From a virus, in IMG/VR virus record IMGVR_UViG_3300043932_000066: a stretch of DNA of 41,421 nt. The stretch is one strand, 5' to 3'. Each line of letters starts with the position of its first letter. The stretch's first letter is position 1. The position numbers and the translations under genes are program-made. A model generated the notes under the pieces. That model made no database searches, was not told the origin of the DNA, and was given only the letters and a program-made list of their open reading frames with translations. This document shows, one piece after another, positions 6,968 through 11,768 of the stretch.

Positions 6968-7024
6968 GGCTATGCCCCTCTCTCTTCCTCGTAATCGAGG
7001 AAGGTAAGTAGTACGGGTAGGGGG

Positions 7025-7249
7025 TCAGGCGGTCTTGCGGTGGTGTGCCTGTTGTGAGCGTTCCGTGCGGCGCATGTCGGGTCGGACCGTGCGCGCTGCG
7101 ATGTAGTCGGCGAGGTTCTGCTCGGTGAACCGGATGCGGCGCCCCACCCTCACGTGCGGGATCTCCCTGCGCCCAGCCATCCGCTTGATGGTTTGTGCAG
7201 TCAAGCCGAGCTGGGTGGCCATCCACGCCGCATCGTGCGTCTCGGGCAT
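7025..7249 (-). CDS. Excisionase-type HTH DNA-binding protein (second copy)
   Basis: MPETHDAAWMATQLGLTAQTIKRMAGRREIPHVRVGRRIRFTEQNLADYI. GGAGGAAGAGTA precedes the ATG, and TAATG overlaps the upstream stop. Confidence 0.7.
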   Translation of the reverse strand: MPETHDAAWMATQLGLTAQTIKRMAGRREIPHVRVGRRIRFTEQNLADYIAARTVRPDMRRTERSQQAHHRKTA

Positions 7250-7641
7250 TACTCTTCCTCCATGTCGGCGGCGAGCCGGTTGGCCCTTTCGCGGAGTCGG
7301 TTGATCTGGTCGCGCTTGCGAGCGTTCCTGCGTCGCGCGTTCGCCACGGTGACGGGATGCCAGTCGACGTCGGTCTCGACGAGGATCGCGGCGCCGCCCC
7401 ACCGGTTGATGAGGTCGACCCTGTGCTGAGCGCTGGAGCGGGACCGGTAGATGGGCCGGTCGGATGGGATGAAGAACGGGTGGGGCTCGCCCCACACCTG
7501 CTGGCAGTGCTCGTCCCAGCCCTTCGGCGCGCCCTCAGCCTCGGTCTTCGGGGCCGCGGGGACGGTCTCCGTCCAGTCCTCCAGGACCTCGACGTTGGCG
7601 TCCGGGAAGTCGGCGACGTCCATGGCCTTGTAGAGCCTCAT
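7249..7641 (-). CDS. Hypothetical protein (130 aa)
   Basis: MRLYKAMDVADFPDANVEVLEDWTETVPAAPKTE.... GAAGGAGATCGCAGC precedes the ATG. ATGA overlap with the antirepressor stop. Confidence 0.7.
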   Translation of the reverse strand: MRLYKAMDVADFPDANVEVLEDWTETVPAAPKTEAEGAPKGWDEHCQQVWGEPHPFFIPSDRPIYRSRSSAQHRVDLINRWGGAAILVETDVDWHPVTVANARRRNARKRDQINRLRERANRLAADMEEE

Positions 7642-8450
7642 GCTGCGATCTCCTTCGTGAGGGTGAGGGTCCCGTGTTCGAGGGCGTAGGCGGTGAGCCC
7701 GTCCCACAGGCGGGCCTCGCCCTTGGGTGTGAGGCGGGGCGTGACCTTGCGGACGGTCCCGTGGTGGGCGGTGTCGATGAGGGTCTCGGCGACGGTCGCC
7801 CACCCGGCTTCCACGGCTTGGCTGGTGGGCTGGTTGTGGCGGATGGTGTTGCCGCGGATGAGGATCCCGAGGCGTCCGGCGTGGTCCCAGACGTCGTCGT
7901 GCTTGACGGGCATGCCGGGGAAGCGGCTTGCGGCGTAGGCCTTGAAGCGGTTCGCGACGTCGCCGATGAGCTGGAGGCCTTCGCTGGAGCGGTAGAAGTC
8001 GCGCTCGGCGGCCGGCCCCTCCAGTGCGAGGGCCCGGGCTTCGGCGGCCTGCGCTCGGTTGAGCGCGGCCTTCCCCGCGTCGAGGATCGCGGAGATCCCG
8101 TCCAGGGTCGTGATGTCCATCGACGGGGCGCCGTAGCTGCCGGTCCGGCGGATGCTGGGGAGGACGTCGGTCGTCAGCCATCGGCGGAAGGGCTTCGCCT
8201 TCGGGCTGTCGCTGCGGATGATGACCTCGTACATGCCCGGCTCGTTGACGACGTTCATGGAGCGGGTCTGCCCTCCGGACCTGATGTCCGCCTGACGGAC
8301 GTCAGCTTCTTCGAGTCGGGCGGCGACGTTGCGGGTGTTGGTGATGTCGAGGACGGCGCACAGGTCGTTGAGCACGGCCCACGGCTCACCCTCTATGTCG
8401 AGCACCCGAACTGCGGTACCCTCGTAGGTGAAGGGGATCAGGTCTTGCAT
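7638..8450 (-). CDS. Prophage antirepressor (Bro-N domain + KilAC domain)
   Basis: Bro-N-like: LIPFTYEGTAVRVLDIEGEPWAVLNDLCAVLDI...KPFRRWLTTDVLPSIRRTG. The C-terminal half is KilAC-like. An alternative ATG lies at 8465. Confidence 0.85.
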   Translation of the reverse strand: MQDLIPFTYEGTAVRVLDIEGEPWAVLNDLCAVLDITNTRNVAARLEEADVRQADIRSGGQTRSMNVVNEPGMYEVIIRSDSPKAKPFRRWLTTDVLPSIRRTGSYGAPSMDITTLDGISAILDAGKAALNRAQAAEARALALEGPAAERDFYRSSEGLQLIGDVANRFKAYAASRFPGMPVKHDDVWDHAGRLGILIRGNTIRHNQPTSQAVEAGWATVAETLIDTAHHGTVRKVTPRLTPKGEARLWDGLTAYALEHGTLTLTKEIAA

Positions 8451-8517
8451 AATGCTTCCTTTCATCGCTCCCGTCGGCTGGTCCCGGCGGGAGTCTCTTG
8501 TTGGGTAGGGTTCGGGC

Positions 8518-9075
8518 ATGGACTGGACTGTTGTGGCATCGTGGGCCGGTGCCGTCGTCTCGCTGCTCTCGCTCGCCGCGACACTGTGGTTGCAGTGGTG
8601 GCGGCGCCCCACTGTCGACTGGATCTGCGACGGGTGGATGAACAAGCGGGGCGCCATCGGGAGCAGAGTCCGCGAGGGTGGGTTCCCCGTGTACCTGACG
8701 CTGGCCAACTGCGGGGACGGCGCCGCCTTCGGTGTGGAGACGCTGCGATGCCACGGGGGAGCGAAGGAGCCGTACCGCGTTTTCGAGGCTGGCGTGGTAC
8801 CGGCGGGCGGGCAGATCGAGGTGCGGCTCATGGTTGAACTCGCTGATCTGGAGTCCGCGTGGGTAGAGGTGGACTACACATCCAGCCCGACTCTTCGCTC
8901 CACACGCAGACACTCACGCCGCTTTTACCCGGCAGTAGAACTCGCTGACCATGCTCGACGGAGGCCCGGCTACGATCCGACACAGGTCGGTCCCCAGTGG
9001 GGAGAAACGTCTCGGATCCCGGGTCCCATCGCCACGCGGCAAGAGGACGATCACGGTCCTGGCGACGCTCAGTGA
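8518..9075 (+). CDS. Plus-strand membrane-anchored protein (185 aa), candidate lysogen-expressed moron
   Basis: N-terminal TM segment WTVVASWAGAVVSLLSLAATLWLQWW. GC3 is about 88% over 8518-8820 by my count and falls where it overlaps the convergent gene. Confidence 0.6.
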   Translation: MDWTVVASWAGAVVSLLSLAATLWLQWWRRPTVDWICDGWMNKRGAIGSRVREGGFPVYLTLANCGDGAAFGVETLRCHGGAKEPYRVFEAGVVPAGGQIEVRLMVELADLESAWVEVDYTSSPTLRSTRRHSRRFYPAVELADHARRRPGYDPTQVGPQWGETSRIPGPIATRQEDDHGPGDAQ

Positions 9076-9190
9076 GCCACGATGTTCGGGAGCGGCGCGC
9101 CCGCCGAATCGACACGAAGGACCCGACGCACACGGCCAGTGAGACGAGCGTGACGCCGAGGCACACGAGCTGGAACGCGAACACGCTCAT
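8828..9190 (-). CDS. Membrane protein (120 aa), third gene of the Cro-side operon
   Basis: GAAGGAG then tcgtg then ATG. N-terminal TM segment MSVFAFQLVCLGVTLVSLAVCVGSFVSI with about 88% GC3. The 3' 248 bp overlap gene 8518..9075 antisense. Confidence 0.55.
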   Translation of the reverse strand: MSVFAFQLVCLGVTLVSLAVCVGSFVSIRRARRSRTSWLTERRQDRDRPLAAWRWDPGSETFLPTGDRPVSDRSRASVEHGQRVLLPGKSGVSVCVWSEESGWMCSPPLPTRTPDQRVQP

Positions 9191-9372
9191 CACGACTCCT
9201 TCGGTTCGAGGAGGTCACGCAGGCGGATGCTCCTGTTGTGTCGGTTGCGGCGCGACTTCTTGTTGTCCGCGTCGCTGAGGACGCGGATCGAGGCGGCGCG
9301 GTCAGGAACGGTCCGGAGGATGTCGGACACTCCGGCGAGCGGGCGGCGCGACGAGTGGAAGATGTCGACCAT
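9190..9372 (-). CDS. Hypothetical basic protein (60 aa)
   Basis: MVDIFHSSRRPLAGVSDILRTVPDRAASIRVLSDADNKKSRRNRHNRSIRLRDLLEPKES. High GC3. TGATG/GTGA junction with the Cro-like gene. Confidence 0.6.
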   Translation of the reverse strand: MVDIFHSSRRPLAGVSDILRTVPDRAASIRVLSDADNKKSRRNRHNRSIRLRDLLEPKES

Positions 9373-9611
9373 CACGCCGCCACCGTCTCGAAGAACTCGG
9401 TGGGGAGGAGCGCGCCCGGGGTGATGCCGAGGGCGCGAGCAATCTTGCGGAGGTCCTCCACGTTGAAGGGGCGGTCGCCGTGGATCTTGTTCTGGAGGGT
9501 CGTGTACGGGATCCCGCTCTTCCGCGACACGCTGGTCTGACTCTCGCCTGCGGCGAGGATGGCCTGCGCCACCGCCTGGGCGGTTCGCTCGGTGAGATTG
9601 TCTCTTGCCAT
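9372..9611 (-). CDS. Cro-like XRE-family HTH regulator (first gene of the early leftward operon)
   Basis: SQTSVSRKSGIPYTTLQNKIHGDRPFNVEDLRKIARALGI is an XRE HTH. Divergent from the ImmR-like gene. An alternative start at 9632 lies inside a palindrome. Confidence 0.7.
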   Translation of the reverse strand: MARDNLTERTAQAVAQAILAAGESQTSVSRKSGIPYTTLQNKIHGDRPFNVEDLRKIARALGITPGALLPTEFFETVAA

Positions 9612-9624
9612 GCGGCCAGAGTAC

Positions 9625-9696
9625 CTATCCATACGGATAGAGTCAAGCGGGGGTGTCGACCTATTTGGATCGACACTCTATCCAAAATGGTGGTAG
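9625..9696. promoter_or_regulatory. Divergent switch region with three operator-like dyads
   Basis: CTATCCatacGGATAG (9625-9640). GTGTCGA-n10-TCGACAC (9653-9676) enclosing CTATttGGAT. CTATCCaaaatggtGGTAG (9678-9696). The region looks AT-richer than its surroundings. Confidence 0.5.
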
Positions 9697-9706
9697 TGTC
9701 ATCCGC

Positions 9707-10033
9707 ATGGATGAAGAGATGGAGCAGGACGCGGCCGCGTACAACGCCGCCGTCGGCGCGCAGATACGCGCGGAAGCTGCGAAGAAACGAATCTCCCTGG
9801 TGCAGCTCGCCAAGCTCTCCGGCGTTGGAGAGGCCAGCGTGAATCGCTACGTCGCGGGCAATCGGGCGATCCCAATCCCAGCCCTCTACGCGATCGCTGC
9901 CGCACTGGGTGTGCCGCCCGACGTGATCCTGGACCGTGCCGCCGAAGACATGGAGACCCCCGAGTGGATGCTGGCGGCGCACCATAATCCGGATCGTCGT
10001 CGTGAGGCGGAGGGTCGGGAGGACTCCATCTGA
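9707..10033 (+). CDS. ImmR/CI-like XRE-family repressor
   Basis: RISLVQLAKLSGVGEASVNRYVAGNRAIPIPALYAIAAALGV is an HTH_XRE. Co-oriented with the ImmA-like protease, with a 1-nt overlap. Confidence 0.75.
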   Translation: MDEEMEQDAAAYNAAVGAQIRAEAAKKRISLVQLAKLSGVGEASVNRYVAGNRAIPIPALYAIAAALGVPPDVILDRAAEDMETPEWMLAAHHNPDRRREAEGREDSI

Positions 10034-10458
10034 TGGTGGGGGTGCGCACAATGGGGTGCATGATCCCGACGATGGATGATCTGCTGGAGGAATGCGACGG
10101 GCTGTCCGTCCGCGTGAAGTGGGCACCCCTGCCTCCCGAGATGGACGGCGCGTTCCTCCTCCCGCGCCGCACCATCATCCTCAGCGACGACCTGGCCGAC
10201 TACCAGCAGCGGCCCGCGCTCGCCCACGAGATCGAGCACGCCAGGCGCGGCGATGACGGGCCACAGCCGCCACGAGTCGAGCAGCACATCGACGAGATCG
10301 TCGCCTGCCGCTTCGTCGACTTCATGGCCTACGCGCGGTCAGAAACCGAGCGCGGATGGAACACCCCCGCGATCGCGCGGGACCTCGACCTCCCGCGCTG
10401 GGTTATCCAGGCCTACCGCCGCGCCCTAGAGAAAGCGGTCCGCAAGGTCAGCGCGTAA
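10033..10458 (+). CDS. ImmA/IrrE-family zinc metallopeptidase (anti-repressor protease)
   Basis: HEXXH motif within ALAHEIEHARRGDD. About 140 aa. Immediately downstream of the XRE repressor, which is the classic ImmR-ImmA arrangement. Confidence 0.8.
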   Translation: MVGVRTMGCMIPTMDDLLEECDGLSVRVKWAPLPPEMDGAFLLPRRTIILSDDLADYQQRPALAHEIEHARRGDDGPQPPRVEQHIDEIVACRFVDFMAYARSETERGWNTPAIARDLDLPRWVIQAYRRALEKAVRKVSA

Positions 10459-10478: not shown

Positions 10479-11696
10479 TCACGCTTCGATCTGGGGGAGC
10501 GCCTGAGACAAGGCAAGCGTCATGGCGGCGGCGATGGCCTCCCCTCGGCCTGGGAGGAGATCGGCGTACAGGTCGCTCGTCGTCTGGATGGACTCATGCC
10601 CGAGCTGGTACTGCACGTCCTGCAATGTCGCGCCCGCGCTGATCATCCACGAGGCCGCGGTGTGGCGACAGTCATGGATGCGCGGCCACTTCCCCAACGT
10701 CGCGCCTCGCTGGGCCGGGCGGATCCCGTCCCACATTGACCCCGAGGCGGGGTGGTGGTCGCGGCCCTTGTCTGGCCAGCCTGGCTTCCCGTTTGCCAGT
10801 CGGAGGGCGGGGGCCCACACGTCCGGGTAGAACGTCGAGTGCTTGATCCGCCCCCCGCGCGGCGTCGTGAACAGCAGCTCCTGAGGATCCCGAGCCTTCT
10901 GGTCGCCGCAGTAAGGGCATAGCTGGGCGGGCGTCACGATCGTGCGGCGCCCGCGTCGAGTCTTCGGCGGCCCGACCTCCCACCCGCCAGGCACCTTCTT
11001 CCACGCCTTCGACACGCGCAGGGTCCCAGCACTCTCGTCGTAGTCGGCGACCGTGAGGGCCGTCGCCTCAGAGAATCGCATGCCCGTGCCAAGCAGCGCG
11101 GTGACGAACGAGCGATACGGGGGCGGAATACAGCCGAGAAGGATCGCCGCCTCGCTCTGCGTCAGGCTCACGCGCTCCTCGCGGACATCGTCCTTGCGGA
11201 GGTGCCGGCCTGTCTCCTCGCAGGGGTTGCGAGCGAGCCCCGTCTCCGGATCCCGGGCCGCATGGTCGAGGACTGACGAGAGGAAGCCGTGCTTGTTCCG
11301 GATGGTCTTCGCGCTCGCTCCTTGCCTCTCCAGGCCGCGGACCCACGCTTGGACGCGCGCCTCGGTGATCATGTCCACGGGGATTCGTCCGAGCGAGCGG
11401 AGGTCGGTGCGGATGATCGCGTGGTAGCGGTGGCGTGTGCCCTCTGTGATGCCGGTGCGCCGGTCGACGTCGGCCGTCGCGTAGTCGACGAGCAGCGGAG
11501 ATTTCGGGCTGCCGTCTTCGTTGGCGGCGAGGATCTCTAGGGCAGCTTCGAGGCCGAGCTGATCTACGGAGCGTAGCCAGTCGTCGCGGCCCTTGGCGGT
11601 GGGGAAGGTGGCGGATCGCTGGCGTCCGTGGTCGCGGTAGAGGGCTTGCCAGGCGATTGTGCCGTCAGCACGGACGCGCTCTCTTTTTGACGCCAT
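10479..11696 (-). CDS. int: Tyrosine integrase
   Basis: C-terminal HDCRHTAASWMISAGATLQDVQYQLGHESIQTTSDLYADL (HxxR...H...Y). Likely ATG at 11696 after GGGAGG. The ORF track extends it to 11729. Confidence 0.9.
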   Translation of the reverse strand: MASKRERVRADGTIAWQALYRDHGRQRSATFPTAKGRDDWLRSVDQLGLEAALEILAANEDGSPKSPLLVDYATADVDRRTGITEGTRHRYHAIIRTDLRSLGRIPVDMITEARVQAWVRGLERQGASAKTIRNKHGFLSSVLDHAARDPETGLARNPCEETGRHLRKDDVREERVSLTQSEAAILLGCIPPPYRSFVTALLGTGMRFSEATALTVADYDESAGTLRVSKAWKKVPGGWEVGPPKTRRGRRTIVTPAQLCPYCGDQKARDPQELLFTTPRGGRIKHSTFYPDVWAPALRLANGKPGWPDKGRDHHPASGSMWDGIRPAQRGATLGKWPRIHDCRHTAASWMISAGATLQDVQYQLGHESIQTTSDLYADLLPGRGEAIAAAMTLALSQALPQIEA

Positions 11697-11713
11697 TCCG
11701 ACCGACCTCCCGT

Positions 11714-11768
11714 GTTGACATGTCAACAATTAGACCCCGTCTAGACACTTGTCAACGCCTCTCAACGC
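11714..11768. repeat. attP left arm: clustered (G/C)TCAAC(A/G)C motifs (candidate arm-type integrase sites)
   Basis: Palindrome TTGACATGTCAA (11715-11726). GTCAACGC (11751-11758). CTCAACGC (11761-11768). An inverted GTTGAC lies at 11816-11821. Confidence 0.45.

Follow-up and report, generated by a model that had tools for sequence, protein, structure and literature searches.

Two open reading frames (ORFs) that run towards each other beside the immunity switch of a phage share the last 248 bp of their coding sequence, and this raises the question of whether both strands of the shared DNA encode functional protein or whether the overlap is a by-product of the way the locus arose. The window, by which we mean the whole analysed stretch of 41,421 nucleotides (IMG/VR virus record IMGVR_UViG_3300043932_000066), has a GC content of 66%, and the part of it considered here is the control region of a temperate phage (Table 1). 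A sequence-only reading made earlier had described the two ORFs, their overlap and an N-terminal transmembrane (TM) helix in each, all of which are present in the ORF list and in the AF2 models, and its hand counts of third-position GC content (GC3; about 88% outside and about 60% inside the overlap) agree with the values obtained here, which are 0.86 and 0.61 for the 5′ part and the overlap of the plus ORF and 0.90 and 0.55 for those of the minus ORF. The locus is most likely a phage add-on of an ordinary kind and falls short of a proven two-strand gene pair. On balance we favour an accessory plus gene lying backwards in the operon, an orphan minus ORF, an overlap that is a by-product, and exclusive expression in the lysogenic and the lytic state.

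Table 1. Features of the control region, with positions in the window.
Feature	Position	Strand	Basis
Tyrosine integrase ORF	10479-11729	-	ORF list / Pfam
IrrE/ImmA-like peptidase	10033-10458	+	ORF list / Pfam
XRE-type repressor	9653-10033	+	ORF list / Pfam
Promoter-like site for minus-strand operon	9702-9675	-	promoter scan
Cro-like HTH gene, heads lytic-strand operon	9372-9632	-	Pfam HTH_3
61-aa early gene; stop coupled to minus-ORF start (TGATG)	9190-9375	-	
Shine-Dalgarno GAAGGAG of minus ORF, within 3′ end of 61-aa gene	9196-9202	-	
Minus ORF, 120 aa from ATG 9190 (121 aa from 9193)	8828-9190/9193	-	
Plus gene, 185 aa, reversed relative to early operon	8518-9075	+	
3′-3′ overlap of plus gene and minus ORF, 248 bp	8828-9075		
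Candidate -10 box TAGGGT, -12 to -7 of plus ATG	8506-8511	+	
11-bp GC-rich hairpin, then TCTTGTTG, in the 67-bp gap between ant start and plus start	8467-8494	+	
Bro-N/KilAC antirepressor (ant), next lytic-strand gene	7638-8450	-	Pfam Bro-N 1.6e-20, ANT 3.4e-7

The plus gene is nested between cro, the 61-aa gene and the minus ORF on one side and ant on the other, all of them on the minus strand, and this orientation bears out the earlier proposal that it is read against the Cro-side operon. Transcription of the lytic strand can reach ant only by passing antisense across the plus gene. The hairpin in the gap between the ant and plus starts (dG -21.1 kcal/mol) is the strongest local hairpin within 8400-9300. 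A second plus-strand hairpin followed by TCTTGTTG is found at 9235-9256, inside the 61-aa gene and beyond both the plus gene and the minus ORF, and the pair of hairpins might serve to insulate the plus transcript and to end it. A search of the phage records with 8400-9400 gave no relative at the nucleotide level.

Judged by sequence comparison, the plus gene is genuine over its whole length. Its protein has 28 representative relatives by phmmer (115-214 aa, plus one 1390-aa match), distributed in Actinomycetota and their viruses, and the best match (1.3e-61) covers residues 4-174. The closest relative, P0007, is 55% identical over residues 4-174, with 56% identity in residues 29-103, 62% in residues 104-140, which lie inside the overlap, and 47% in residues 141-185. 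Since the protein sequence encoded there is conserved in relatives, the overlapped DNA belongs to the plus gene. The AF2 model built with the family alignment (mean pLDDT 82.8) has a TM helix at residues 3-28 and an Ig-like beta-sandwich from residue 35 to about 140, whose pLDDT stays above 90 as far as about residue 140; the C-terminal tail (residues ~150-185) is disordered and Arg/Pro-rich.

No match for the plus protein was found in PADLOC, PHROG, Pfam or NCBIfam, and a Foldseek search of the PDB with the model gave nothing below E 1e-3, just generic Ig-like matches. The nearest kinds of domain to the sandwich at residues 35-140 are the Ig-like domains CARDB, DUF11 and TRAP-beta, all of them sub-threshold. 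The motif N-x-G-D-G-x-A resembles a strand motif of CARDB, and the structural neighbours in the Atlas carry CARDB or DUF11 at a TM score of about 0.5. Among 18 family members searched against Pfam, the best E-values were 0.034 for CARDB and 0.021 for TRAP_beta, and sub-threshold matches were obtained in 3-4 of the 18. The gathering score of CARDB (PF07705) or DUF11 is not reached, the protein falls into none of the Pfam families, and the resemblance is structural only. Back-translated scans of viral and genome contigs for the loci of the closest homologues (P0007, P0002, P0008 and P0009) gave no match, and the scan of metagenomes was the only one that yielded loci of the family, the closest of which (L003) has the gene cut at residue 147. 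In two other loci (L004, 4532-5371, and L006, 4517-5008) a distant family member is followed by a same-strand membrane or lipoprotein-like gene without Pfam match, and the family may travel in small envelope-protein clusters.

A 397-aa ORF (7638-8831) was considered as the real ant, with the plus ORF as its shadow, and was rejected on four grounds: the 270-aa form has a Shine-Dalgarno sequence of its own, and its Bro-N domain begins at residue 14; the N-terminal extension of 127 aa is rich in Pro, Ser, Thr and Arg; the plus frame is still conserved past 8831, where that antisense frame has stops; and AF2 gives the plus protein a confident fold. The extension is a third-position-matched shadow frame of the 5′ half of the plus gene and looks non-coding, and it illustrates how convincing shadow ORFs appear at 66% GC. 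The TGA of the minus ORF and the ATG of the 397-aa frame overlap as ATGA (8828-8831).

The only family member in a described phage is gp06 of Microbacterium phage Min1 (YP_001294766, uncharacterised), which matches the plus protein in tblastn (33% over residues 30-134, E 8e-6) and in Foldseek, where the plus model finds Min1 A6N1W4 at E 1e-10. Similarity over most of the length and a matching architecture of TM helix and beta-sandwich place the plus protein in the same family. The position is also the same, as gp06 is flanked by cro and ant and reads against both. In contrast to the plus gene, gp06 is not overlapped, since the convergent gp05 ends 54 bp away, and gp05 encodes a non-hydrophobic protein of 54 aa that is unrelated to the minus ORF. 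It is duplicated on the other side of gp06 as gp07, within 189-nt direct repeats (L002, 3704-3892 and 4457-4645; 83% identity, spacing 753 bp), and the gp05 and gp07 proteins are nearly identical. The repeat looks like the footprint of a cassette insertion or duplication.

Both phage members carry a TANNNT box 6-7 nt upstream of the start and both are without a clear Shine-Dalgarno sequence. In Min1 the box is TAGAGT, at -13 to -8 relative to the ATG matching the family start in the alignment. A generic sigma-70 scan detected no promoter at the start of the plus gene, and TAGGGT is a consensus match only. By comparison with the leaderless genes of actinobacteria, the arrangement suggests a promoter abutting the plus ORF and a leaderless transcript. 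The family starts with M-[DE]-[WL], compared with MGMELW in the annotated gp06 (L002, 3911-3917), and the annotated start is probably two codons too early, as TAGAGT precedes the second ATG.

The minus ORF is of a different kind. Its first 37 codons (9190-9080) encode a TM helix followed by the motif RRARRSR at a GC3 of 0.89, and the coding appearance of the ORF is limited to about these codons. Codons 39-120 are the antisense of the last 82 codons of the plus gene. AF2 gives a helix at residues 2-46, with pLDDT about 90 over residues 1-30. In both products an Arg cluster directly follows the hydrophobic N-terminal helix, which suggests the same membrane topology. Searches for a homologue of the minus ORF found none among 5.8 billion proteins, at lengths near its own or shorter, none by tblastn of phage records and none by six-frame scans of viral and genome contigs, and its best look-alike in the Atlas scores 0.75, which is within the range often reached by shuffled proteins. 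Min1, L004 and L006 have the family gene without such a partner ORF, the neighbours in L004 and L006 being co-directional, and no diverged copy with both genes was found; synonymous sites are saturated at about 50% identity. The expectation that both frames would be conserved in relatives is thus borne out for the plus frame and fails for the minus frame, which has no relative.

The start signals of the minus ORF are sound. As the sequence-only reading had noted, it has the ribosome binding site GAAGGAG and is coupled to the Cro-side operon; GAAGGAG lies 5 nt upstream of the ATG at 9190, and the TGA of the 61-aa gene (9192-9190) shares one base with this ATG. Among phage records the nearest relative is G001, in which the 61-aa gene, GAAGGAG and the ATG are about 95% identical to those here; the homology ends exactly after the shared ATG, with complete divergence beyond. 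The shared start serves an excisionase-type HTH gene in G001, which is without the minus ORF, the plus gene and ant. Because the ribosome binding site and ATG are kept in G001 before a different gene, they are inherited from the upstream module, and anything placed downstream of them will be translated. In place of the single 65-aa excisionase-type HTH gene of G001 (L001, 1909-2106), there are about 2.1 kb here (~7000-9188), which hold the minus ORF, the plus gene, ant, a 130-aa ORF and an HTH gene.

That the two ORFs form a defence and counter-defence pair, like Tha/Ith or Tai/Ati, we regard as unlikely. The plus protein would block a step of infection in the lysogen, the lytic TM peptide would neutralise it, the tail-to-tail overlap would enforce reciprocal expression, and the minus peptide could act alone or together with its tail. 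The architecture fits published noncontiguous operons, and both products are single-pass membrane proteins with the Arg cluster after the helix. The partner is, however, not conserved: in Min1 its place is taken by the unrelated, non-overlapping gene for a non-hydrophobic 54-aa protein, the co-directional neighbours in L004 and L006 do not fit the scheme, the minus ORF is an orphan, and no defence family was matched.

Genuine dual coding, in which the whole 120-aa minus protein is functional and its overprinted tail is selected, so that the third positions of the plus gene are pulled off G/C, is improbable in our estimation. The codon positions of the overlap pair 1 with 1, 2 with 3 and 3 with 2, and its GC content by plus codon position is 0.71/0.56/0.61. 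The fall of GC3 in the minus frame is trivial: every third position there is a second position of the plus frame (GC 0.56), and the GC3 of the minus tail (0.55) merely equals plus GC2. The plus frame is another matter. Its maximum-likelihood GC3 change point falls after codon 105 (support 86-124; permutation P=0.002) and the overlap begins at plus codon 104; in the minus ORF the change point falls after codon 34 (support 25-39) and the overlap begins at codon 39. Within the well-supported genes of this phage, only 1.6% of the GC3 windows are at or below 0.70 and the minimum is 0.62, so that the 0.61 seen over the 82 codons of the plus overlap is extreme and exceptional for this phage. On the other hand, the tail of the non-overlapped Min1 gp06 falls from 0.83 to 0.54 (P=0.018), the fall in the plus gene beginning earlier than that in gp06. 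Since a similar drop occurs there with no overlap, dual constraint is not demonstrated by plus GC3, and the earlier view of the GC3 fall as the signature of such constraint is not supported in that form. The collapse of plus GC3 at the overlap boundary is nevertheless the one sign of double constraint and has to be reckoned with.

The absence of stops in the 82 antisense codons points in the same direction. In the same antisense frame of the phage's own genes there are 0.034 stops per codon, and 82 open codons occur at 8% of positions. When the plus protein was resampled with synonymous codons at the codon usage of the phage, the frame was open in 53% of the versions, and when the actual codons of the plus tail were shuffled it was open in 7% (0 stops seen against 2.2 expected, P=0.07). 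Stops are, however, equally depleted where there is no partner, namely in the 5′ part of the plus gene beyond the minus stop (0 against 2.6 expected, P=0.047) and in the tail of L004 (0 against 3.2 expected, P=0.02), and of five family members, four have no stop in this antisense frame over their C-terminal region. Stop avoidance does not go beyond expectation in these comparisons, and the open antisense frame (P 0.07-0.53) is compatible with chance.

The lowered GC3 places the composition of the minus tail (score 0.09) midway between antisense junk (-0.52) and real proteins (0.61), and the single-sequence AF2 model of the minus ORF has a beta-hairpin at residues 81-110 (pLDDT 70-77), both of which would suit a functional tail. 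Against this, the composition is no better than that of GC3-matched synonymous versions of the plus tail (P=0.62), and of the two frames only the plus frame is conserved, the minus ORF being without homologue in all collections searched. The claim of the sequence-only reading that both frames look truly coding is upheld for both 5′ parts and not for the minus tail, which has no homologue and the composition of its controls. The joint claim, that there is true two-strand coding and that the lysogen plus protein and an induced minus protein with a functional tail form a defence and antidote pair with interlocked 3′ ends, the collapse of plus GC3 at the boundary being the footprint of the double constraint, we consider quite improbable.

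That the minus ORF is an artefact or is untranslated, a base or indel error near 9077-9100 hiding the true stop or there being no gene at all, is very unlikely. Stops lie at 9069 and about 9055 in the other minus frames, and one indel would end the minus ORF at 9069; if the TGG at 9079-9077 were TGA or TAG, the ORF would end at that codon. The coding signal of the ORF also ends at codon 34-39, and its ribosome binding site and ATG come with the upstream module. However, the identical 120-aa product is encoded on two JGI contigs and the identical 185-aa product on three contigs from two sources, so that an assembly error is less likely, and the first 38 minus codons (GC3 0.89) encode a clean TM helix.

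Even less probable is an arrangement resembling a type I toxin-antitoxin system, in which the minus ORF would give a toxic hydrophobic peptide that is repressed in lysogens by the 3′ part or the read-through of the plus mRNA acting as antisense. The N-terminal TM helix and basic tail of the minus product recall small membrane toxins, and the plus transcript would pair with two thirds of the minus ORF or more. Neither strand of 8828-9190, including the stretch from the plus stop to the minus start, yielded a terminator. Such systems have a hydrophobic toxin of less than 60 aa, a promoter of its own and a dedicated antisense RNA, and the minus ORF departs from each of these: it has 120 aa, it is translationally coupled in an operon without its own promoter, and the RNA antisense to it is an mRNA that encodes a conserved protein. 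An Rfam scan gave no match, nor did Pfam. Recent recombination importing a low-GC3 tail has no support, as identity to relatives is no higher in the tail than elsewhere.

The by-product reading, which we favour, would run as follows. The plus gene would be a self-contained accessory ("moron") gene inserted backwards in the early lytic operon of a temperate phage of actinobacteria, and its product would cross the membrane once and carry an Ig-like beta-sandwich. The minus ORF would be a lineage-specific gene for a small membrane peptide, or a fragment of a gene, whose beginning coincides with a mosaic junction and whose ribosome site and ATG are those of the conserved upstream gene. Past about 37 gene-like codons the ribosomes would meet no stop and would read 82 codons antisense to the plus tail. 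The codon of Trp38 (TGG, 9079-9077) is outside the plus ORF, 2 nt beyond the plus stop, and a single change from stop to Trp at this codon could have yielded the present minus ORF. A stop there would remove the overlapping tail and leave the plus protein untouched. The overlap would most likely be a by-product of the module junction or of a lost stop, and there is probably no selected dual-coding design. Two observations sit less comfortably with it: the plus GC3 change at the start of the overlap fits dual constraint neatly and is partly unexplained otherwise, and the P of 0.07 from the codon shuffle is lowish.

In the lysogen the plus gene would be made from its own promoter, and after induction transcription from the cro promoter would cross the plus gene antisense on its way to ant, so that the lysogenic and lytic states would be mutually exclusive, as in noncontiguous operons. 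The sequence-only reading had proposed such exclusivity through convergent transcription, and this seems a reasonable interpretation given that the architecture is documented in prophages (PMC11087260, PMC11364771). From position and architecture, the plus protein is most plausibly an exclusion or defence factor of the prophage at the membrane. If the ordinary reading is true, the locus defines an uncharacterised membrane-anchored Ig-like family of actinobacterial prophages, with a fixed reversed site between cro and ant, and this site would make the family a reasonable candidate for an exclusion or defence factor expressed in lysogens. It also carries a caution, since in phage DNA of 66% GC an antisense overlap of 250 bp and a dip in GC3 are alone insufficient for dual coding. 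Were the minus tail functional, the pair would be among the few supported long antiparallel coding overlaps in phage.

The overlap can be compared with the long antiparallel ORFs of GC-rich prokaryotes (Moshensky and Alexeevski, bioRxiv 10.1101/724807; P. aeruginosa, PMC8850804), where a stop-free frame likewise lies opposite a real gene and the same statistical question is posed, stop avoidance or chance, as here at 66% GC. Those differ from the present case in that the minus ORF is not embedded: it begins outside the gene, with a functioning start and a 5′ part that looks real.

The arrangement of the plus gene can be compared to the noncontiguous operons of prophage defence genes, namely Tha/Ith of S. 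aureus 80alpha, in which reciprocal expression in the lysogenic and lytic states was shown (PMC11087260), and Tai/Ati of phi80, a noncontiguous operon of prophage accessory genes with reciprocal expression (PMC11364771). In such operons a gene on the opposite strand is nested within one operon, as the plus gene is, and has its own promoter, for which the box TAGGGT is a candidate here; overlapping antisense transcription makes the two states exclusive, as it would in our case. Neither system is related in sequence or fold to the plus and minus products. The layouts also differ: the nested gene of Tha/Ith is the antidote, within the cI operon, and the nested plus gene is the candidate lysogenic gene, within the lytic operon.
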